From Actinomycetota bacterium (GTDB lineage Bacteria > Actinomycetota > CADDZG01 > WHSQ01): a stretch of 64,000 nucleotides of DNA. The notes beneath the pieces were generated by a model. The model worked only from the letters and a program-made list of their open reading frames with translations. It was not told the DNA's origin and did not search any database. Positions 33,989 through 44,942 of this stretch are shown here, piece by piece. Each line of letters starts with the position of its first letter. Position 1 is the stretch's first letter. The DNA lies in NCBI GenBank assembly GCA_046566065.1, contig JBKHXK010000010.1:4392-68391 (forward strand), in the 5' to 3' direction. The position numbers and the translations under genes were made by a program.

Positions 33989-37366
<3,378 letters not shown>

Positions 37367-37646
37367 ACGTGCCTCCTGTAGTTGCCTCAGTGGGGACACA
37401 GACCCGGGTCAAGAAGGGGCCCCGTCTTTCCCTTCACGACCTGCCCCAACCGGCTCGCGATGGGCGGTTCTTAGCCGCGCGACAAGGCGAATCGAACGAT
37501 CGGGGGCGGACACAGCAAAGAAGCAGTATAGGGGCACGCCCATACGGCGTCAACCACGGCCCGGGGGCCGTGGGACGAGCTATTCAGCTGTGTTGCGGAC
37601 GTTATCCCCCGGGGTGCGCGATTTCAAGCCTCAGAACCCCGAACGC

Positions 37647-37676
37647 GAGAAAGGCGCCCTGCCGGACGCCCTTCTC
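37647..37676 (-). terminator. hairpin between rplL and rpoB (possible partial terminator/attenuator)
   Basis: Minus-strand RNA reads GAGAAGGGCG-UCCGGCAGGG-CGCCUUUCUC, a 10-bp stem with one GU pair, starting 22 nt after the rplL stop. There is no clean U-tract. Confidence 0.35.
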
Positions 37677-37698
37677 GACCACGCTAGCTCTGTGAGGA

Positions 37699-38091
37699 CT
37701 ACTTCAGTTCGACGGTCGCTCCTGCACCCTCGAGCTTGGCCTTGGCCTCTTCGGCCTGCTCCTTGGCCACCTTCTCGAGCACCGGCTTCGGGGCCGAGTC
37801 CACGAGGTCCTTGGCCTCCTTGAGGCCGAGGCTCGTGAGGGCCCGCACCTCCTTGATGACCTGGATCTTCTTGTCGCCGGCCGCCGCGAGGACGACATCG
37901 AACTCGTCCTTCTCCTCGGCTGCGCCTGCGCCGTCACCACCGGCTCCGCCGCCGGCACCGGGGGCTGCGACGGCCACGGGGGCCGCTGCGGTCACACCGA
38001 ACTTCTCCTCGAACGCCTTAACGAACTCGGACAGCTCGAGGACGGTCCAACCGGCTACCGCCTCTAGAACGTCTTCCTGCGTGATCGCCAT
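37699..38091 (-). CDS. rplL: 50S ribosomal protein L7/L12
   Basis: 130 aa. ...[17 protein letters not shown]...[23 protein letters not shown]. Confidence 0.97.
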
Positions 38092-38093
38092 CT

Positions 38094-38891
38094 CTATTCC
38101 TCCTTCTCGTCGCCGCTTGTGGCGGCGGTGTCTTCCTCATCCGTATCTGCGTCGGTCGTATCTGAAGAGGCCTCTACGGAGCTGGCGGCCTCGTCCGAGC
38201 TCTCGGACTCGGTCTCGGCGACCGCATCCGCCACCTCGGCCTCGCCGCGATCCCCGGTTTCCTCCGGAGCTGCGTCGCCTGCCGGCTCGTCCGATGCCTC
38301 GGCTTCGGGAGCAGCCTCGGCTTCGGGAGCAGCCTCGGCGGGTGGTGCTCCTGCATCCCCGGCGGGGAGCTCTCCCGATTCCTTCTTGGCCAGCACCTGA
38401 GCGAGCATCGAACCCAGGTCCCGCAGTGCCGCAGCGAACACGTTGACCGTCTGCTGCAACGGGGTATTCATCAGCATCGCGATCTTGGCCAGCTGCACCT
38501 CTCGGGGCTCCAAGCTCGCCAGCGCCTTGGTCTGACCGGCGTCGATGATCTTGCCGCGCAGCACGCCACCCTTGATCACCAGCACCGGGAACTTCTTCGC
38601 GGCATCGTCCAGGGCCTTGGCCGCGGCCACCGCGTCACCGCGGCAGAAGGCGATCGCCGTGGGTCCCTCGAGCATGTCGGCCAGCTCGTCGAGCCCGACC
38701 TCGCGGACGGCGATCCGGGCCAGGGTGTTCTTCAACACCTTGTAGTCGGCGTCGGCCTCGCGGAGGGCGCTGCGAAGCTCGGCGATCTCGCCAACCGATA
38801 GCCCGCGGTACTCCGTCAACAGGGCGGCGTTCGACTCCTGGAAGCGGCCGGTGATCTCCTCGACGGCCTGCGTCTTCTCGGGTCTTGCCAT
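38094..38891 (-). CDS. rplJ: 50S ribosomal protein L10 with a roughly 90-aa acidic Ala/Glu/Pro/Asp-rich C-terminal tail
   Basis: The N-terminal 175 aa is canonical L10 ([13 protein letters not shown]...[10 protein letters not shown]). The tail contains the tandem [12 protein letters not shown]. Confidence 0.95.
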
Positions 38892-39042
38892 ATGGGTCCT
38901 TTCTCGGGCACAAAAAAAGCGGTCACCCCAGACTCCGAGTGACCGCGCACAAGCGCATGTCGTTCGCCTGCGTCGGTCCCGTGAGGGCTTAAGGGGCTTC
39001 CGTCCCGCCGACGGTCTGGGGCTTCAGCGAGCGAGATTACCA
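38892..39042 (-). promoter_or_regulatory. candidate rplJ leader (L10-leader-like attenuator region) with an extended -10 promoter candidate
   Basis: The minus strand has TGG-TAATCT (39042-39034), an extended -10 with no clear -35. A structured leader of roughly 135 nt follows and ends in the terminator at 38912-38946. GAAGCCCC occurs twice in the leader. Confidence 0.35.
38912..38946 (-). terminator. intrinsic terminator 20 nt upstream of the rplJ ATG (leader attenuator and/or terminator of the M50 protease gene)
   Basis: Minus-strand RNA reads GCGGUCAC-(12-nt loop)-GUGACCGC followed by UUUUUUU. This is the only clean U7-tailed terminator I found in the window. Confidence 0.6.
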
Positions 39043-39061
39043 GGGTGTACGCCCCGAGGCG

Positions 39062-40939
39062 CTAGACCGTCGGGGTGGCCTCGGGCGTCGGCTCGGTCGC
39101 CTCGGGCGTCGGCTCGACCTCTTCGGGTTCCTCCTCATCGAGGGCCGGATCATCGGTGGTGTCCTCCCCGGCCGGATCGTCGGTCGGTCCCGGGGCGGGC
39201 TCGAAGGGCTCGGTTCCACCGTCCTCGCTGACGAAGCCGGACCCCTCGAAGGCTTCTTCACTCTCCTCGGGAAGGCTCGGTCGCCCGGTCGTGAGCTGCG
39301 AGGCAGCCTCGATCCCGTCGGAGAACGTCCAGTCCTCGTTGGGTTGGATCGGCTTGTATTCGCCGTTCGGGATCAGGACGTAGGCGCCGATCGCGACGGC
39401 GGTCGCACCGACCAGGACCACGGCCCCTCGGGCGAGCGGTCGCTCCTTGGTCACGTTCAGGGCTCCCACCGCGATCCGCTTGGACGTCCGAGCGAGGGTG
39501 ACCCCCATCCCCGTTATCGGCAGCACCAGCATGCCCATGCGCAGCCCGTTGACCGTGGCCTGTGCGGTCTGGCCTCCGTCCAACGCCTCCTGGAGCTTGT
39601 TCCACTGAACGAAGAAGGAGTCGTAGCCGGTCGCCAGGATCCGAGGAGCGCTCAGGATCATCATCCCGAAGAGATAGAGAAGGACGGGGATGACGGTCAG
39701 GACCCAGATCGTCACGACGGCTCGAGCCCACGGCTTCAGCTCCGTCACCTTGGGGGATGTCTCCTGACCCGGCACCATGCTCTTCAAGGTCGGCTTGATG
39801 CGCCCGAACAGATCCGGGATGCCGGTGAGATCGCTGACCACGTGATAGCCGTCGAGCCTCAAGAACGGCATGAATTGGTAGAGCATCAGCATGTGCTGGA
39901 TAACGATCAGGACGAGGATCGGCTCGAAGCCGGTGAGCGCGTAAGCGCCCCCCACCGCTAGGGCGAATATGGCGTTGAAGTAGACGCCGCCGAGATCGGT
40001 GCGGACCCGGCCCCCCTTCCCCAGTTTCAGGGCGTCCGTGACGTCGGTGTAGAAGGCGGGCCAGACGACGTAGATGCCGAACCCGATCTTGCCGGGCCGG
40101 GCCCCCCCGTACCTGCAGGCGGTCGCGTGACCGAGCTCGTGCCAGCCCACCGACAGGATGAGCAACCCGTAGATCATCAGCACTACCAGCGGCTGATACA
40201 GGAGGTCCCGCAATCCCCCACCGATGCCGTGGATGCCGAAGTACCAGACGTCCAAGGCGATGAGGCCGACAAGGACCGCCACGATCACCGGAGGCCAGAA
40301 CAGGGGCCGCAACAATCCTGCGATGAAGTTCACGGCCCCTTCCGGGACCAGCGTGGTCTTCAGCTTCAATGCCAGCAACGGGTCCGGCTTCACGAGCTCC
40401 GGAGTGCTGCCGTCGGCTCCGACCACCACCCCGTCGGGCCGCAGGTTGTTCTCCAGAAGTGTTGCCACGTTGTCGGCCGAGACGGTTCGGCCGTAGCCCT
40501 CGCTGACCCTTTCGGCGATCTCTTGAAGAGAGCGCTTCCCGTCGATCGACTCGGCGACCAGGTGCAGGAGATGGGTCAGCTGGATGATCTGACCGTCCGA
40601 GCGCCGGACCAGATAACGATCCTCCTTGAAGCCCGAACCCTCGTACTCGCCGAGGAACTCCACGCCTTCCGCCAGCCGGGGGACCTGATCCCCGCCGGCG
40701 CCGACCGGTGGAGGCGCGTCGTCGGCGATGAGGTTCTCGGTCGGCTGACCGGCCGACGTGCCCGGCACGGCCGGAGGGCTCGACCCGGCGTCCTCCGCAA
40801 ACACCGCGGGAGGGGTCGACTCGACCGATGACTCTTCCTCGACCTCAGCAGGCGGCGGCGAATCCGGATCTACCTTGGGGATCTTCTGCAGGTGTTTGGC
40901 TTCCTCGGGGACCCCGTCATCCGACGGCACGGAACCCAT
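39062..40939 (-). CDS. polytopic M50-family (site-2-protease-like) zinc metalloprotease with an N-terminal PqqD/RRE-like domain and low-complexity termini
   Basis: 625 aa.
- HELGH at residues 267-271 (nt 40127-40141) lies in a hydrophobic segment.
- The second M50 motif, FMPFLRLDGYHV, is at residues 356-367.
- At least six hydrophobic spans are visible.
- Residues about 86-172 (PRLAEGVEF...YLVRRSDGQIIQLTHLLHLVAESIDGKRSLQEIAERVSEGYGRTVSADNVATLLENNL) match the PqqD pattern L.....G.I.L.......DG.R(S/T)L.EI.......G......V..LL.
- The C-terminal tail carries the tandem EPTPEAT. Confidence 0.8.
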   Translation of the reverse strand: MGSVPSDDGVPEEAKHLQKIPKVDPDSPPPAEVEEESSVESTPPAVFAEDAGSSPPAVPGTSAGQPTENLIADDAPPPVGAGGDQVPRLAEGVEFLGEYEGSGFKEDRYLVRRSDGQIIQLTHLLHLVAESIDGKRSLQEIAERVSEGYGRTVSADNVATLLENNLRPDGVVVGADGSTPELVKPDPLLALKLKTTLVPEGAVNFIAGLLRPLFWPPVIVAVLVGLIALDVWYFGIHGIGGGLRDLLYQPLVVLMIYGLLILSVGWHELGHATACRYGGARPGKIGFGIYVVWPAFYTDVTDALKLGKGGRVRTDLGGVYFNAIFALAVGGAYALTGFEPILVLIVIQHMLMLYQFMPFLRLDGYHVVSDLTGIPDLFGRIKPTLKSMVPGQETSPKVTELKPWARAVVTIWVLTVIPVLLYLFGMMILSAPRILATGYDSFFVQWNKLQEALDGGQTAQATVNGLRMGMLVLPITGMGVTLARTSKRIAVGALNVTKERPLARGAVVLVGATAVAIGAYVLIPNGEYKPIQPNEDWTFSDGIEAASQLTTGRPSLPEESEEAFEGSGFVSEDGGTEPFEPAPGPTDDPAGEDTTDDPALDEEEPEEVEPTPEATEPTPEATPTV

Positions 40940-41020
40940 CTGCGTTGTCTCGGTTTCTTCAGGCGGCGGCCCGGAACCTCGGTCGATCTCAGTCTCCTGG
41001 TTCGATGATGACGGGGAAAG

Positions 41021-41050
41021 TAAGAAGCGGCCCCGGAGGGCCGCTTCTTA
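41021..41050 (-). terminator. strong stem-loop between the last small-peptide gene and the M50 protease gene (attenuator or mRNA-stabilising hairpin)
   Basis: taagaagcggccc-cgga-gggccgcttctta is a perfect 13-bp stem with a 4-nt loop. It lies 21 nt after the peptide C stop. Only CUUU follows, so it is probably a partial terminator. Confidence 0.55.
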
Positions 41051-41071
41051 GTAACACGTTGTTTCCTTGAA

Positions 41072-41266
41072 CTAGTTGCTCTGGTCGATGTCTACATCCT
41101 GCTCGGCGTTCGCGTAAGCGACCGAGTTGTCCGAGAGCACGTTCGCCGCGACGGCTGCGTTCACCGGCGCTGCGAGGTTCGCGTTGATCAGCGACATCTC
41201 TTCGCGGTCCTCGAGCTGCTCCGAACCCTGCTGCTCCAGCTCTTCCTTGTTCAGTCCGTCAGTCAT
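41072..41266 (-). CDS. small acidic leader-peptide-family protein, paralog C (64 aa)
   Basis: MTDGLNKEELEQQGSEQLEDREEMSLINANLAAPVNAAVAANVLSDNSVAYANAEQDVDIDQSN. AAGGAGG lies 6 nt upstream of the ATG. Third-position GC is high. It is a paralog of the two upstream ORFs. Confidence 0.75.
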   Translation of the reverse strand: MTDGLNKEELEQQGSEQLEDREEMSLINANLAAPVNAAVAANVLSDNSVAYANAEQDVDIDQSN

Positions 41267-41299
41267 GTCAGCCTCCTTCGGCTATCCGATCCCTCTTAC

Positions 41300-41515
41300 T
41301 TACTGGCTCTGGTCGATGTAGGCGTCCTGCGTGGCGTCGGCGTAGGCAACGGCGTCGTCCGAGAGAACGTTGGCTGCGACGGCGGCGTTCACGGGGACTG
41401 CGATGTTGGCGTTGACCAGCGACATCTCTTCGCGGTCCTCGAGCTGCTCCGAACCCTGTTGCTCCAGCTCTTCGCTCGAAAGACCCTCCGGCTGGGTGGT
41501 GTTTTCCTCGGGCAT
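41300..41515 (-). CDS. small acidic leader-peptide-family protein, paralog B (71 aa)
   Basis: MPEENTTQPEGLSSEELEQQGSEQLEDREEMSLVNANIAVPVNAAVAANVLSDDAVAYADATQDAYIDQSQ. Start is set at ATG 41515, with GGAGGTGA 5 nt upstream. The longer ORF-track version overlaps paralog A. Confidence 0.75.
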   Translation of the reverse strand: MPEENTTQPEGLSSEELEQQGSEQLEDREEMSLVNANIAVPVNAAVAANVLSDDAVAYADATQDAYIDQSQ

Positions 41516-41531
41516 GGGTTTCACCTCCCCC

Positions 41532-41738
41532 CTAGTTGCTCTGGTCGATGTCTGCGTCTTGCTCTGCGTTCGCGTATGCAACCGATCCGTCTGAGAGCAC
41601 GTTCAACCCGACTGCCGCGTTGACGGGGGCCGCCAGGTTCGTGTTGATCAAAGACATCTCTTCGCGGTCCTCGAGCTGCTCCGAACCCTGTTGCTCCAGC
41701 TCTTCGGAGCTCAGTCCTTGCGCGTTCTGCTCGGCCAT
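41532..41738 (-). CDS. small acidic leader-peptide-family protein, paralog A (68 aa)
   Basis: MAEQNAQGLSSEELEQQGSEQLEDREEMSLINTNLAAPVNAAVGLNVLSDGSVAYANAEQDADIDQSN. ATG 41738 has AAGGAG 5 nt upstream. The GTG at 41741 is too close to that Shine-Dalgarno sequence. Confidence 0.75.
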   Translation of the reverse strand: MAEQNAQGLSSEELEQQGSEQLEDREEMSLINTNLAAPVNAAVGLNVLSDGSVAYANAEQDADIDQSN

Positions 41739-41827
41739 CACTGCTCCTTCCGCTCGGTCGATACGCCAGTTATGCCCCCGCCCACACGCCGTAAACCGGG
41801 CACTACGGAGCGGAGCGGCTTGTTCCC

Positions 41828-42127
41828 CTAGGACTCGGCCTGGGCGCTGTCGGACTGACTGAACGACTGCGACACGTCGTCCTCTGAATGCGAGACAGGC
41901 TCGCTGGAGGAGCCTTCTGCGTCGCTGCCGGCGTAGCCGGAGGCCTCGTCGGCCGTCAGCGTGGGATCGGTCGCGCTCGCGGAAGCCGCATCGGCGGCGC
42001 CTACGCCTTCGGTGGTCGGCGGCACGAGTGAGGTCGTGGATCCGGAGAGGACTGACAGCATCTCTCGGTCTCCGAGTGACTCGCTGCTCTGGGAATCGAG
42101 GTCTACGTCAGGCTTCTCGGTCGTCAT
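41828..42127 (-). CDS. acidic Ser/Thr/Ala-rich small protein (99 aa) with the shared leader-like motif
   Basis: MTTEKPDVDLDSQSSESLGDREMLSVLSG... Compare SEQLEDREEMSLINAN in paralogs A-C. A GGGGGAAGG Shine-Dalgarno-like sequence lies upstream of the ATG. It overlaps the upstream ORF by 20 nt. Confidence 0.55.
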   Translation of the reverse strand: MTTEKPDVDLDSQSSESLGDREMLSVLSGSTTSLVPPTTEGVGAADAASASATDPTLTADEASGYAGSDAEGSSSEPVSHSEDDVSQSFSQSDSAQAES

Positions 42128-42335
42128 CGCCTTCCCCCTTTGACTCGGACGTGGTCTCGTGCACTTCGGTGTGGCCGCCTCGCTGGGCGACCTTGATCTT
42201 CTGTTTGCGCGAGACGCGCGTCCGGCTTCCCGGTTCGTTGACGTTGGCCGCGATCACGGCATTGACGGCGCCTGCGATCGAGGTGCCCTCCTCCGAGGTG
42301 GCGACTTTCTCGTCGATCACCTTGCGGTATCTCAT
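42108..42335 (-). CDS. small protein (75 aa) with a core-like Asn/Ala/Val segment followed by a basic then acidic tail
   Basis: MRYRKVIDEKVATSEEGTSIAGAVNAVIAANVNEPGSRTRVSRKQKIKVAQRGG... The segment AVNAVIAANV parallels PVNAAVAANV of paralogs B and C. About 80 percent GC3 by eye. The start is uncertain: ATG 42335, or the TTG at 42368 used by the ORF track. Confidence 0.5.
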   Translation of the reverse strand: MRYRKVIDEKVATSEEGTSIAGAVNAVIAANVNEPGSRTRVSRKQKIKVAQRGGHTEVHETTSESKGEGDDDREA

Positions 42336-42380
42336 CCCCGGTCTCTTCCCCGCTGGGGGTCGGGGCAAACGATGACGCGC

Positions 42381-42408
42381 GAAGGCCCGCCCCTGGGGGC
42401 GGGCCTTC
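42381..42408 (-). terminator. GC-rich stem-loop directly after rplA (I-shaped terminator candidate without a U-tract)
   Basis: gaaggcccgccc-ctgg-gggcgggccttc is a perfect 12-bp stem, 19 nt after the rplA stop. Confidence 0.5.
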
Positions 42409-42426
42409 GCGTCTGGGCCTTGTTCT

Positions 42427-43155
42427 CTAAGCGGTGGCCGCCTCGGCCTCCTCGTCGACGAGGTCCTTCGACTTCTGAGGGTCGATCCGGATGCCCGGAC
42501 CCATCGTCGTAGCCAGGGAGATGCTCTTCAGGTAACGACCCTTGGAGGCGGCCGGCTTCGCCCGGATGACCTCGTCCAGGATTGCGGCGTAGTTGTCGAT
42601 CAGGTCCGCCTCGGGGAACGACTTCTTGCCGACGATCATGTGGAGGTTGCCGTGCTTGTCGGTGCGGTACTCGATGCGTCCGCCCTTGATGTCACCTACG
42701 GCGCGGGCGACGTCATCGGTCACCGTGCCCGACTTCGGGTTGGGCATGAGCCCGCGGGGGCCGAGCACACGTCCGAGCTTTCCGACCGCGGGCATCATGT
42801 CCGGGGTCGCAACGATCGCGTCGAACTCGAGCCAGCCTCCGCCGATCTTCTCGGCGAGGTCGTCATCGCCCACGATGTCCGCCCCGGCCTCGGTGGCTTG
42901 TTTCGCCTTCTCACCCTTGGCGAAGGCGGCAACGCGCATGGTTTTCCCGGTGCCTTTGGGAAGCGAGACCGCGCCACGAACCATCTGGTCGGCCTTGCGG
43001 GGATCGACGCCCAGTCGGATGCTGATCTCGACCGTCTCGTCGAACTTCGAGTCGGGGAACTGCTTCAGGATCTTTACCGCCTCACGCGGCGAGTAGAGCT
43101 TGTCGCGATCGACCAGGGCAAGAGCCTCTTTGAAGCGCTTTCCGTGCTTCGGCAT
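42427..43155 (-). CDS. rplA: 50S ribosomal protein L1
   Basis: [12 protein letters not shown]...[24 protein letters not shown]... Confidence 0.97.
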
Positions 43156-43221
43156 GCGATGCCTCCTTCGTGGTCAACGGAGAGCGCGGGGCTCCCCTCC
43201 CACTGGGTTAAGGGGATGTTG

Positions 43222-43656
43222 CTACTGAACCTTGATTCCCATGCTACGTGCGGTGCCTTCGACGATCTTCATGGCCGCCTCGATGTCGTTCGCGTTGAGG
43301 TCGGGCATCTTCGTCTCGGCGATCTCGCGCACCTGGTCCTTGGTCACCGTTCCGACCTTGGTCTTGTGCGGCTCGCCAGAGCCCTTGTCGACACCGGCCT
43401 TCTGGCGCAAGAGCACGGCTGCCGGGGGCGTCTTGGTGACGAAGCTGAAGGAACGATCCTCGTAGACCGTGATCTCGACCGGCACGATCGTCCCGGTGTT
43501 CTGCTGGGTCGCGGCGTTGTACTGCTTGCAGAAATCCATGATGTTGATGCCGGCCTGACCGAGGGCGGGACCGACGGGAGGCGCGGGCGTGGCCTGCCCC
43601 GCTGCGATCTGGAGCTTCAGTACCTGTGCGACCTTTTTGCGGCGTCCGCCACCCAT
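43222..43656 (-). CDS. rplK: 50S ribosomal protein L11
   Basis: [35 protein letters not shown]. Confidence 0.97.
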
Positions 43657-43678
43657 CTCTTTCTCCTATTCCCTGTTG

Positions 43679-44545
43679 CTAGAGCTTGGCGACCTGGTCG
43701 AAACCGAGCTCGACCGGGGTCTCTCGACCGAAGATATTGACCAACACTTTGAGCTTCGACTGGTCGACGTTGATCTCGGAGATCGAACCAGTGAAGTTCG
43801 CGAACGGCCCCGAGGTGACCCGCACGCTCTCCTGCTCCTCGAACTCGAGGCGAGGCTTGAGCTTCTTCTGGTCCGCCTTGACCTGAAGGATGCGGTCGAC
43901 CTCTCTGTCGGACAACGGGGTCGGCTTGGCCCCCGAGCCCACGAAGCCGGTGACTCCCGGGGTGTTGCGCACCACGTACCACGAGTCGTCGTCCAGGTAC
44001 ATCCGGCAGAGCAGGTAGCCCGGAAACACCTTCTTCTGGACGACCTGCTTCTTGCCCTGCTTTATCTCCATGACGTCTTCCATGGGGATAACGACCTCGA
44101 ACACCGAGTCCTCGACATTCATGGACTGGATGCGTGATTTGAGGTTGGCCTTGACCTTGTTCTCGTAGCCCGCGTAGGTGTGGATCACGTACCAGTCCCC
44201 CGGTCGCTCGTTCGGAGGGATGCGCTGGTCGTCCTCGTAGAACTCGGCGGGCTGGTCCTCGTCGAGCTCGGCTACCTCTTCGTCATCGACCCCGCCCTCG
44301 GACGCGTCCGCCTCGACCTGGTCCAGCTTGGTCTCGGGCAGGGCGGCCTCGGCGTCCGTACCAGCATCGACGGGTGCAGCGGTGAGCGGGCCATCATCTT
44401 TGGGGATGTCCGCGTCGGAGGGGATGTCATCGGCTCCGGTCTCCGCAGCGGCGGCTTCCGGGGTCACGTCGGTGCCATCGGACGCAGAAGCCTCCGTCTC
44501 TTCCTCGTTCTTCTCGAGCACTTCGTCCGTGTGGGTTTCTGTCAT
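43679..44545 (-). CDS. nusG: transcription termination/antitermination factor NusG with a roughly 110-aa acidic N-terminal extension
   Basis: The C-terminal 180 aa is canonical ([14 protein letters not shown]...KOW: [18 protein letters not shown]). Start is set at ATG 44545, which forms an ATGA overlap with the secE stop. Confidence 0.93.
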
Positions 44546-44835
44546 ATCTCCACTCCATACAGAGCCAGGATCGCCTTGGTGAAGACGAAGTCCATCGCGA
44601 AGATCACCGCGGCTACGACGATCGAGGCCACCAGGACCACGGTCGAATATGCGACTACTTCCTGTCGGGTCGGCCACGCCACCTTCTTGAGCTCGGCGAC
44701 GACCTCCTTGAAGAACTGCGAGGGCTTGGTGCGCTCCTTCTTGGTGGCCGCCGTCGGCGGCTTGACCGCCGGACGCGGGGCAGCCTTCTTGCGCTCCTCT
44801 TCCTTCTTCATCATGCGCTTGTACTGCCTGTTCAC
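44542..44835 (-). CDS. secE: preprotein translocase subunit SecE
   Basis: 97 aa. Basic N-terminus, then [20 protein letters not shown] and a single C-terminal transmembrane segment. It lies immediately upstream of nusG. GTG start, position uncertain. Confidence 0.85.
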
Positions 44836-44942
44836 AGCCAGACCCTTTCTCGGTACGCCGCCCCGGACGCGCTAGATAAAGGTCCGAGCGGGGGGAGAGA
44901 AGGCAAAGATTAGCACGCTCGTGAACCGCCCACTGAGGCCGC

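Follow-up and report, generated by a model that had tools for sequence, protein, structure and literature searches.

A 64,000-nucleotide stretch of an Actinomycetota bacterium genome (contig JBKHXK010000010.1 of assembly GCA_046566065.1; hereafter the window) encodes on its minus strand a 625-residue protein, P (39062..40939), whose translated open reading frame (ORF), profile matches and AlphaFold2 (AF2) model together describe an M50-type intramembrane metalloprotease preceded by a recognition element (RRE) of the sort used to make peptides that are synthesized ribosomally and modified post-translationally (RiPPs). It is encoded in the conserved secE-nusG-rplK-rplA ... rplJ-rplL-rpoB region, with rplA on one side of the locus and rplJ on the other. 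Immediately upstream, on the same strand, are three genes for paralogous small peptides (A1, A2 and A3), a fourth short ORF and the gene of a small charged protein, X; genes for a secreted protein, S, and a lipoprotein, L, lie beyond secE. An earlier note on this DNA had proposed that P carries a PqqD/RRE-like segment and selects its substrates by leader binding rather than by a prior site-1 cleavage, a logic that it considered unusual for the M50 family. P is 100% identical to a protein from a metagenome-assembled genome (MAG) that NCBI labels 'M50 family metallopeptidase', and its JGI name follows the KEGG orthologue of YydH; a sequence search of the PDB with full-length P returned no match. 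The full-length AF2 model of P has a pLDDT of 80.8 and a pTM of 0.76.

The protein begins with a Pro/Glu/Ser-rich extension of 85 residues (40685..40939), modelled at a pLDDT of 40–56, which is not conserved: the alignments of nearly all of the top 150 representatives of the family start at query residues ~77–90. It is followed by a block (residues 86–172, 40424..40684) with a pLDDT of 87–97, in which the full-length model places three strands (94–99, 108–112 and 118–121) and three helices (123–131, 138–149 and 155–166). A separate AF2 model of residues 81–200, built on 100 homologues, again gave the order strand-strand-strand-helix-helix-helix, and its top Foldseek match in the PDB was PqqD itself (5sxy, E 8e-3, probability 1.00, target TM-score 0.62, 89 of 94 residues). 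Next came the lasso-peptide RREs TbiB1 (5v1u) and 6jx3_B, both from structures with a leader peptide bound, and, further down the list, the RiPP-maturation enzymes TruD, SkfB and MibB.

At the level of sequence, support for an RRE is weak when one protein is taken alone, but it agrees from member to member of the family. On its own, the domain of P matched the NCBIfam models TIGR03859 (PqqD) and ApyI RRE with E-values of 0.001 and 0.00095, below the curated thresholds for such domains (18.9 bits against 46 for TIGR03859; 13.2 against 23.4 for PF05402). When 82 orthologous domains were compared with NCBIfam, the three commonest families were PqqD (34 domains), ApyI (24) and the daptide protease (7), and Pfam PqqD was matched, below threshold, by 24 of the 82. 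The profile of the P family also reached PqqD 3g2b (E 0.028), aligning on the motif DG-x-x-S-L-x-x-I-A, exactly where the earlier note had recognised its DG-x-R-(S/T)-L-x-E-I signature. Between the predicted fold, with PqqD and lasso RREs as its nearest structural neighbours, and these concordant sub-threshold profiles, the assignment of residues 86–172 to a PqqD/RRE-type domain is well supported. The note had arrived at the same domain, had correctly described the 85 residues ahead of it and had given the right coordinates (codons 86–172), although the 86-letter string that it quoted corresponds to residues 87–172, a trivial off-by-one.

A conserved linker, K-x-D-P-L-L-A-L-K-L-K-x-T-L-V-P-E (residues 184–200, 40340..40390; alignment and AF2), leads from this domain to the membrane. 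K184, D186, P187, L197 and P199 are near-invariant and L189 and L191 invariant among P homologues, and a strand is predicted at residues 192–198, immediately ahead of the first transmembrane helix (TM1). The M50 catalytic core, delimited by alignment, AF2 and hydropathy (39842..40294), consists of TM1–TM4 and a predicted β-hairpin at residues 285–298. It contains HELGH (residues 267–271, 40127-40141), as the note had stated, and R-L-D-G-Y (residues 361–365, 39845-39859), and H267, E268, G270, H271, R361, D363, G364 and Y365 are invariant in 100 homologues; the first hydrophobic span, which had been placed at about residue 205, is shifted by the hydropathy profile to residues 216–237. Of the seven membrane helices in the AF2 model, the second ends with HELGH and the fourth is closely followed by LDG (362–364).

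The best NCBIfam match of P is NF041824 (daptide_HExxH), with an E-value of 1.7e-27 over residues 106–391; it begins inside the RRE and ends at model position 303 of 379. NF058609 (YydH/LiaK) matches the catalytic core only (residues 251–370, E 3.7e-11), and the general Pfam M50 family, PF02163, stays below its gathering threshold (11.6 bits against 27.2, E 0.18). We place P in the M50 group because of its HExxH and LDG motifs and the significant matches to NF041824 and NF058609. The note's picture of an RRE fused N-terminally to an HExxH/LDG intramembrane metalloprotease is supported. Beyond the part aligned to NF041824, P carries a family-specific membrane extension of three long helices, TM5–TM7 (residues 403–523, 39371..39733; AF2 and hydropathy), and then a 102-residue tail (residues 524–625, 39065..39370) which, from its alignment and charge count, is predicted to be extracytoplasmic. 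The tail has 2 Lys/Arg against 30 Asp/Glu and contains the motifs P-N-G-E-Y-x-P-I-Q-P-x-E-x-W-T and T-G-R-P-S-L followed by an acidic, Pro/Thr-rich end; P524, N525, G526, Y528, P530, E535 and G552 are invariant.

The orientation of P in the membrane can be deduced from natural fusions to S. Stand-alone S proteins have a signal peptide, yet in ~33 of the 149 best 50%-identity representatives (~22%) an S lacking one sits at the C-terminus of P, joined after a Pro/Thr-rich linker and recognised by the S profile with E-values of 1e-28 to 1e-65. The C-terminus of P should thus be outside and, with seven helices in between, the RRE inside. This predicted N-in/C-out topology has the K/R-rich loops of P on the HELGH/LDG side; it puts the RRE in the cytoplasm, where the earlier note expected it, and no extracytoplasmic placement of the domain was found. 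The fusion proteins are 740–990 residues long (P0374, P0380, P0398, P0400, P0481 and ~28 others).

The three A genes encode precursors of 64 residues (A1, subtype b, 41072..41266), 71 residues from an internal ATG (A2, subtype a, 41300..41515) and 68 residues (A3, subtype g, 41532..41738; NCBI also has a 68-residue protein there, P0169), all on the minus strand. The leader of A1 ends in ...EQLEDREEMSL and its core is INANLAAPVNAAVAANVLSDNSVAYANAEQDVDIDQSN. The A genes each have a strong Shine-Dalgarno sequence, which in A1 is GAAGGAGG, and the fourth ORF has a good one too. At the start of P (40940-40961) no Shine-Dalgarno sequence is recognisable, or at best a weak one, in contrast to the strong GGAGG-type sites of A1–A3, the fourth ORF and rplA; this fits either production of the substrates in excess over the enzyme or a true start downstream of the 85-residue extension. 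The fourth ORF (41828..42127, minus strand, 99 residues) begins with a divergent leader-like segment, ESLGDREMLSVL, and continues as a Ser/Asp/Ala-rich acidic tail. No homologue of it turned up in 82 related loci, nor does any other reading frame conceal an A core. It may be a fourth substrate or a paralogue that has decayed, and it shares 20 nucleotides with the end of X. The five candidate leader regions counted by the earlier note therefore reduce to three true paralogous precursors, the other two being this divergent ORF and X, which has no leader motif.

To survey the peptides beyond the window, an A-peptide hidden Markov model (HMM) was run on the stop-to-stop ORFs of 83 sources (the window and 82 fetched loci, one of them a duplicate). 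A-type genes were present in 78 of the 83, mostly in three copies, and 76 distinct related loci carry them. In 74 of these 76 the A genes are linked to P, and in 70 they lie directly upstream on the same strand. The linkage survives rearrangement, as seen from the few loci in which A is downstream of P (L047, L055 and L067) or on the opposite strand (L034 and L079).

Such linkage also bears on a more prosaic explanation, in which the domain is a generic regulatory or DNA-binding winged helix, P a regulatory site-2 protease acting, for instance, on an anti-sigma factor, and the small ORFs incidental. RREs are themselves winged-helix folds, 25 of the 82 orthologous domains weakly match the PKMT winged-helix family of Pfam, and an extracytoplasmic function (ECF) sigma factor gene is found ~5 kb upstream in one locus, L002. 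Incidental neighbours would hardly be linked to P so regularly, though, and no conserved anti-sigma/sigma pair occurs within 8 kb in 80 genome loci. The three best structural matches are all RREs, two of which were solved with a leader bound, and PqqD and RRE families are the commonest NCBIfam matches. We regard this explanation as very unlikely. Given leader-bearing small peptide genes directly upstream of an RRE-protease, substrate choice through the leader, as the earlier note proposed, is the best reading of the locus.

Across 222 A peptides the leader follows the motif L-[ST]-x-E-E-L ... G-E-E-L-P-[ED]-R-[EA]-A-M-S-L, which in the clade of the window takes the form [LV]-[GE]-[DE]-R-E-E-M-S-L. 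The core behind it keeps to one length (it measures 38 residues in 174 of 217 peptides), and eleven positions are invariant in all 222 (N31, P35, N37, A39, N43, S46, D47, A51, A55, Q57 and Q63). The core contains 27% Ala, 15% Asn and no Cys, has Lys or Arg in 1 of 212, and carries a net charge between 0 and −7, which is −1 or lower for every peptide except one; its first 19 residues, which include Asn and Pro, are moderately hydrophobic (mean hydropathy 1.2–1.5) and are followed by ~20 acidic residues. The C-terminal residue is most often Asn (109 of 222), then Thr (38) and Gln (15), and the peptides of the window end in N, Q and N. Subtypes a, b and g recur, most loci having one of each, and stand in the order g-a-b in the window. 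Along the cores (for example 41072-41185) the invariant Asn residues are spaced by six (N31, N37 and N43), with a second series at 48, 54 and 60, and small or aliphatic residues alternate throughout, a sequence pattern that recalls hexapeptide or β-solenoid repeats.

Conservation is distributed unevenly over the system: median identity to the window is 52% in P and 57% in the leader but reaches 82% in the core, and the core surpasses P in this respect at 67 of 67 loci. These values are difficult to reconcile with a multi-peptide unmodified bacteriocin or toxin, in which the A peptides would become antimicrobial or signalling molecules upon leader removal and S and L would confer immunity or sense the product. 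Paralogous leader peptides beside a dedicated protease are known from the daptides, which are synergistic hemolysins, and from the epipeptide protease EpeP, and extracytoplasmic proteins such as S and L could well be immunity proteins. Arms-race peptides normally diversify, however, and here the core is near-invariant across classes and phyla, as well as anionic and almost free of Lys and Arg. No ABC transporter recurs within 8 kb in 80 genome loci, PADLOC gave no hits, and the frequent fusion of S to P would be odd for an immunity protein. A bacteriocin or toxin therefore appears improbable to us.

Besides P and A, the conserved operon comprises three partners in the order X-A(2–5)-P-S-L, a module that we defined by ORF clustering within 8 kb and HMM searches over 80 genome loci, L001, L002 and the window. 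In the window X (42108..42335, minus strand; HMM and hhalign) has 75 residues from its ATG, a single copy of the unit N-A-x-I-A-A-N-V...T-x-V-S-x-x-Q-x-I and no A-type leader motif; in the family it measures ~70 residues and is found within 3 kb in 50 of 76 loci. S (45774..46508, minus strand, 244 residues), identified by profile searches, linkage and the fusions, bears a signal peptide, a helical region and a tail rich in Pro and Thr, together with one N-terminal unit and two units of the form N-x-A-x-A-x-x-x-C-x-x-C-x-T-x-A-x-A-x-Q. Its relatives measure ~240–280 residues; at 49 of 68 loci they come directly after P, and the two genes frequently overlap by 4 bp. L (44943..45773, minus strand, 276 residues; clustering and linkage) is a lipoprotein with the lipobox LTGC; in the family it is ~260–280 residues long and comes after S at 33 of 63 loci. 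Only A, X, S and L recur within 8 kb in the 80 loci; tailoring enzymes and transporters do not. Scans of A1–A3, the fourth ORF, X, S and L against Pfam and NCBIfam gave no meaningful family, and PDB profile searches with S and L returned coiled-coil noise only. JGI labels stand-alone S proteins 'putative peptide zinc metalloprotease', probably on account of the P-S fusions.

X, A and S appear to be built on a common unit of ~25 residues, [P/G]-x-N-A-A-[VI]-A-A-N-V-(turn)-T-x-A-x-A-x-Q-x-V. Comparison of the profiles with hhalign gave a probability of 91% (E 1e-6) for X and A, 52% (E 1.5e-4) for X and S, and 29% (E 6e-4) for A and S; since the last value is modest and the composition biased, we take the likeness of A and S as suggestive only.

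Taken together, we consider it likely that P is an RRE-guided M50 leader peptidase for A1, A2 and A3, and possibly for the fourth ORF. In such a mechanism the RRE would dock the conserved acidic leader of an A peptide (L-[ST]-x-E-E-L ... [LV]-[PGE]-[DE]-R-E-[AE]-M-S-L) in the cytoplasm and thereby hold the peptide at the active site, formed by HELGH, where TM2 ends on the cytoplasmic side, and by Asp363 just past TM4. The leader would then be cut, at or near the M-S-L / [IV]-N-A-N junction, from an anionic core that is rich in Ala, Asn and Val and fixed at 38 residues, and the core would reach the outer face of the membrane, where the tail of P, secreted S and lipoprotein L may act on it. How the core could cross is a matter for speculation: its start might serve as a type-II segment that contains helix breakers and leaves only a very short stub outside, in which case no transporter would be needed. 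Substrates of this kind are among those that site-2 proteases cut without prior site-1 trimming. The products are probably unmodified or only proteolytically matured, because the operon has no tailoring enzymes and the peptides belong to a family of their own.

Several observations weigh against this leader-peptidase reading. No exporter for an anionic 38-mer is encoded at the locus. All PqqD and M50 profile scores fall under the curated cut-offs, and Foldseek with full-length P against the PDB returned weak matches only, through the RRE region, and no site-2 protease structure, a search that is uninformative for the membrane part. In the nearest precedent, the daptide protease MpaP, the role appears to be stated rather than demonstrated (Ren et al. 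2023, 10.1101/2023.03.08.531785). Finally, conservation is higher in the core than in the leader, whereas most RiPP and bacteriocin systems show the opposite, and the 'core' could be something other than a simply released product.

In another reading the three A subtypes would be subunits of an extracellular β-rich fibre or envelope layer, nucleated or anchored by S and assisted by L, with P as the dedicated protease that matures and delivers them. The idea draws on the unit common to X, A and S; on the frequent P-S fusions and the regular succession of S after P and L after S; on a fixed 38-residue, Ala/Asn-rich, Cys-free core with invariant Asn residues at six-residue spacing, more conserved than P at every locus compared; on the co-occurrence of three subtypes in most loci; and on the chromosomal, housekeeping setting. 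The presence in one operon of small subunits, a secreted partner sharing their repeat unit, a lipoprotein and a dedicated processing peptidase recalls TapA-SipW-TasA and curli (CsgA/CsgB/CsgG), which offer an analogy only, as X-A-P-S-L has no sequence or demonstrated structural relationship to either. The similarity of A to S is short, compositionally biased and statistically modest, nor is any amyloid or fibre on record for these uncultured lineages. Such a surface assembly extends the leader-peptidase reading rather than contradicting it, and we hold it as a tentative, less likely addition. A fuller version, slightly more doubtful still, would make X-A-P-S-L an undescribed envelope system, common among soil Actinomycetota, Chloroflexota and Dormibacterota, in which P matures three co-conserved, tail-anchored-like A peptides and passes their cores, without a transporter, to S for assembly into a hetero-oligomeric β-structure, for instance a fibre, coat or complex associated with the wall. 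It would be a new use of RiPP-style leader recognition, one that builds a structural product and not an antibiotic, and would feature a site-2 protease that bypasses site-1 cleavage by design. The A cores outconserve both the leader and the enzyme and share a unit with S, which speaks for a product with a conserved structural or physiological role and against a variable antibiotic.

The design of P, an RRE on an M50 protease, is already known from the daptides, so the logic that the earlier note called unusual for the family has a published precedent and an NCBIfam model, NF041824, that covers MpaP/DapP. As set out in the report on these peptides, daptides were found through an RRE fused N-terminally to a site-2 protease; MpaP is termed an 'RRE-dependent intramembrane peptidase' to which leader removal is assigned, and the RRE-site-2-protease lies beside 2.3 precursors per cluster on average (Ren et al. 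2023, 10.1101/2023.03.08.531785). P matches MpaP/DapP in architecture and logic and is best described as their architectural paralogue: it combines an N-terminal RRE with an intramembrane HExxH site-2-type protease, comes from the Actinomycetota, stands beside several paralogous precursors with an acidic, conserved leader motif and shares significant similarity over the RRE, TM1–TM4 and a short stretch after them. A survey of the literature on RREs combined with M50 or site-2 proteases yielded only the daptide report and one review of proteases.

The differences are nevertheless considerable. P scores 96.6 bits against the NF041824 equivalog cut-off of 300, and it has an extra C-terminal part of 230 residues made of three membrane helices and a conserved external tail. 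Its loci have, within 8 kb, neither DapB (DUF-RRE) nor the oxidoreductase DapC, the aminotransferase DapD, the methyltransferase DapM or an ABC transporter; in the window the neighbours of the P and A genes are ribosomal and secE/nusG genes. The daptide leader motif is ELExMEAP and that of the A peptides ...R-E-[AE]-M-S-L, and where daptides have an invariant C-terminal Thr, A cores are polar and anionic and mostly end in Asn. Conserved S and L partners and P-S fusions are further features that set the P family apart from daptides. Membership of the daptide clusters was accordingly rejected on score, on the Dap genes, on the leader motif and on the C-terminal residue.

One could still imagine a cryptic daptide-like RiPP, with P as the DapP orthologue and the tailoring genes at some other place in the genome. 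Like daptide clusters, the P loci carry several precursors, daptide_HExxH is the best NCBIfam match of P, and Thr, the residue modified by daptide enzymes, does end some A peptides (38 of 222). Against this stand the low score, Asn as the commonest C-terminal residue, the divergent leader, a core that is polar and acidic rather than rich in branched-chain aliphatic residues, and the fact that no aminotransferase, alcohol dehydrogenase, methyltransferase, DUF-RRE or ABC transporter recurs within 8 kb in the 80 loci. We see very little room for a hidden daptide pathway.

Among other maturation systems, P resembles the epipeptide proteases YydH/EpeP/LiaK, which are M50 intramembrane proteases dedicated to maturing a small ribosomal peptide, but scores 43.2 bits against the equivalog cut-off of 225 and matches them in the catalytic core only. 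Epipeptide clusters encode a radical-SAM epimerase, and no radical-SAM gene recurs within 8 kb in the 80 P loci. EpeP is thought to both cleave and export its product, which provides a precedent for the lack of a transporter at P loci, and the same review mentions RREs for lasso proteases only and describes none for YydH/EpeP (PMC10885120). The lasso RREs TbiB1 and 6jx3_B are among the best structural matches of the P domain, yet the lasso protease is a soluble, transglutaminase-like cysteine protease that works with a cyclase, while P is a polytopic zinc metalloprotease and has no cyclase beside it. With RseP, SpoIVFB and the SREBP site-2 protease (S2P), P shares an HExxH in a membrane helix, an LDG motif that provides the third ligand and an active site near the cytoplasmic face; it differs from these classical enzymes in having no PDZ or CBS domain, its choice of substrate being apparently entrusted to the cytoplasmic RRE. 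The A core, which begins with a moderately hydrophobic 19-mer containing Asn and Pro and continues as a tail of only ~20 residues, resembles in turn those S2P substrates that are cut without site-1 trimming.

The P family appears to be distinct, very large and undescribed, with its own peptides, its own C-terminal extension and dedicated extracytoplasmic partners. Clustering of P relatives at 90% identity gives at least 4,948 groups, and the 50%-identity representatives number 7,755 at E ≤1e-3, 3,496 at ≤1e-10 and 952 at ≤1e-30; the A peptides form at least 7,979 clusters at 90% identity, and all source names among the listed A matches were 'hypothetical protein'. Relatives of P occur in at least 585 species-representative genomes. 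The best 80 of these are all MAGs of uncultured lineages in the Actinomycetota, Chloroflexota and Dormibacterota, and the groups represented among them are Thermoleophilia (Gaiellales and Solirubrobacterales), Acidimicrobiia, Rubrobacteraceae, Egibacteraceae, Frankiaceae/Mycobacteriales, Chloroflexota and Dormibacterota. For A, X, S and L no match was found in Pfam, NCBIfam, the PDB, PADLOC or the literature. X-A-P-S-L would combine RiPP-style leader recognition with an absence of tailoring chemistry. For RiPP genome mining the family supplies a large class of RRE matches that should not be read as modified-product clusters. P and its A peptides also make a tractable case for learning how substrates that look soluble are selected, and perhaps exported, by a site-2-type protease.

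The position of P between rplA and rplJ seems to result from a swap of adjacent blocks in the ribosomal-protein region, which split the operon in the clade of the window. There, as in L006, S and L lie upstream of secE and are separated from X-A-P by secE-nusG-rplK-rplA, whereas L002, L007 and L014 have a contiguous X-A-P-S-L-secE arrangement. Between the stop codon of P and rplJ lies a terminator-like hairpin (38919..38946, minus strand) with a 10-bp stem containing 7 G-C pairs and followed by T7; it stands 116 nucleotides past the P stop and 28 nucleotides ahead of the rplJ start. At gathering thresholds Rfam gave zero matches over 36500-47000, the L10 leader included, and a scan for sigma-70 promoters found none.

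Two further candidates were considered and set aside. A defence-system reading was dropped when PADLOC gave nothing, and an assignment of L to the SCO4651 lipoprotein family, weakly matched in NCBIfam by 2 of 14 L members with a best E-value of 0.012, was dropped as evidence. In Streptomyces coelicolor SCO4651 presumably lies between rplA and rplJ, a link to L that is unproven. SCO4651 is listed in the sigma-E envelope-stress regulon of that organism (PMC6767563). Directly upstream of S, a 368-residue ORF (46572-47678, minus strand) shows weak matches to β-propeller-type families (LVIVD and cytochrome D1). Farther out, ~5.5 kb upstream of secE, lies a tRNA-Trp gene (50375-50450, minus strand), which is usually found directly ahead of secE.

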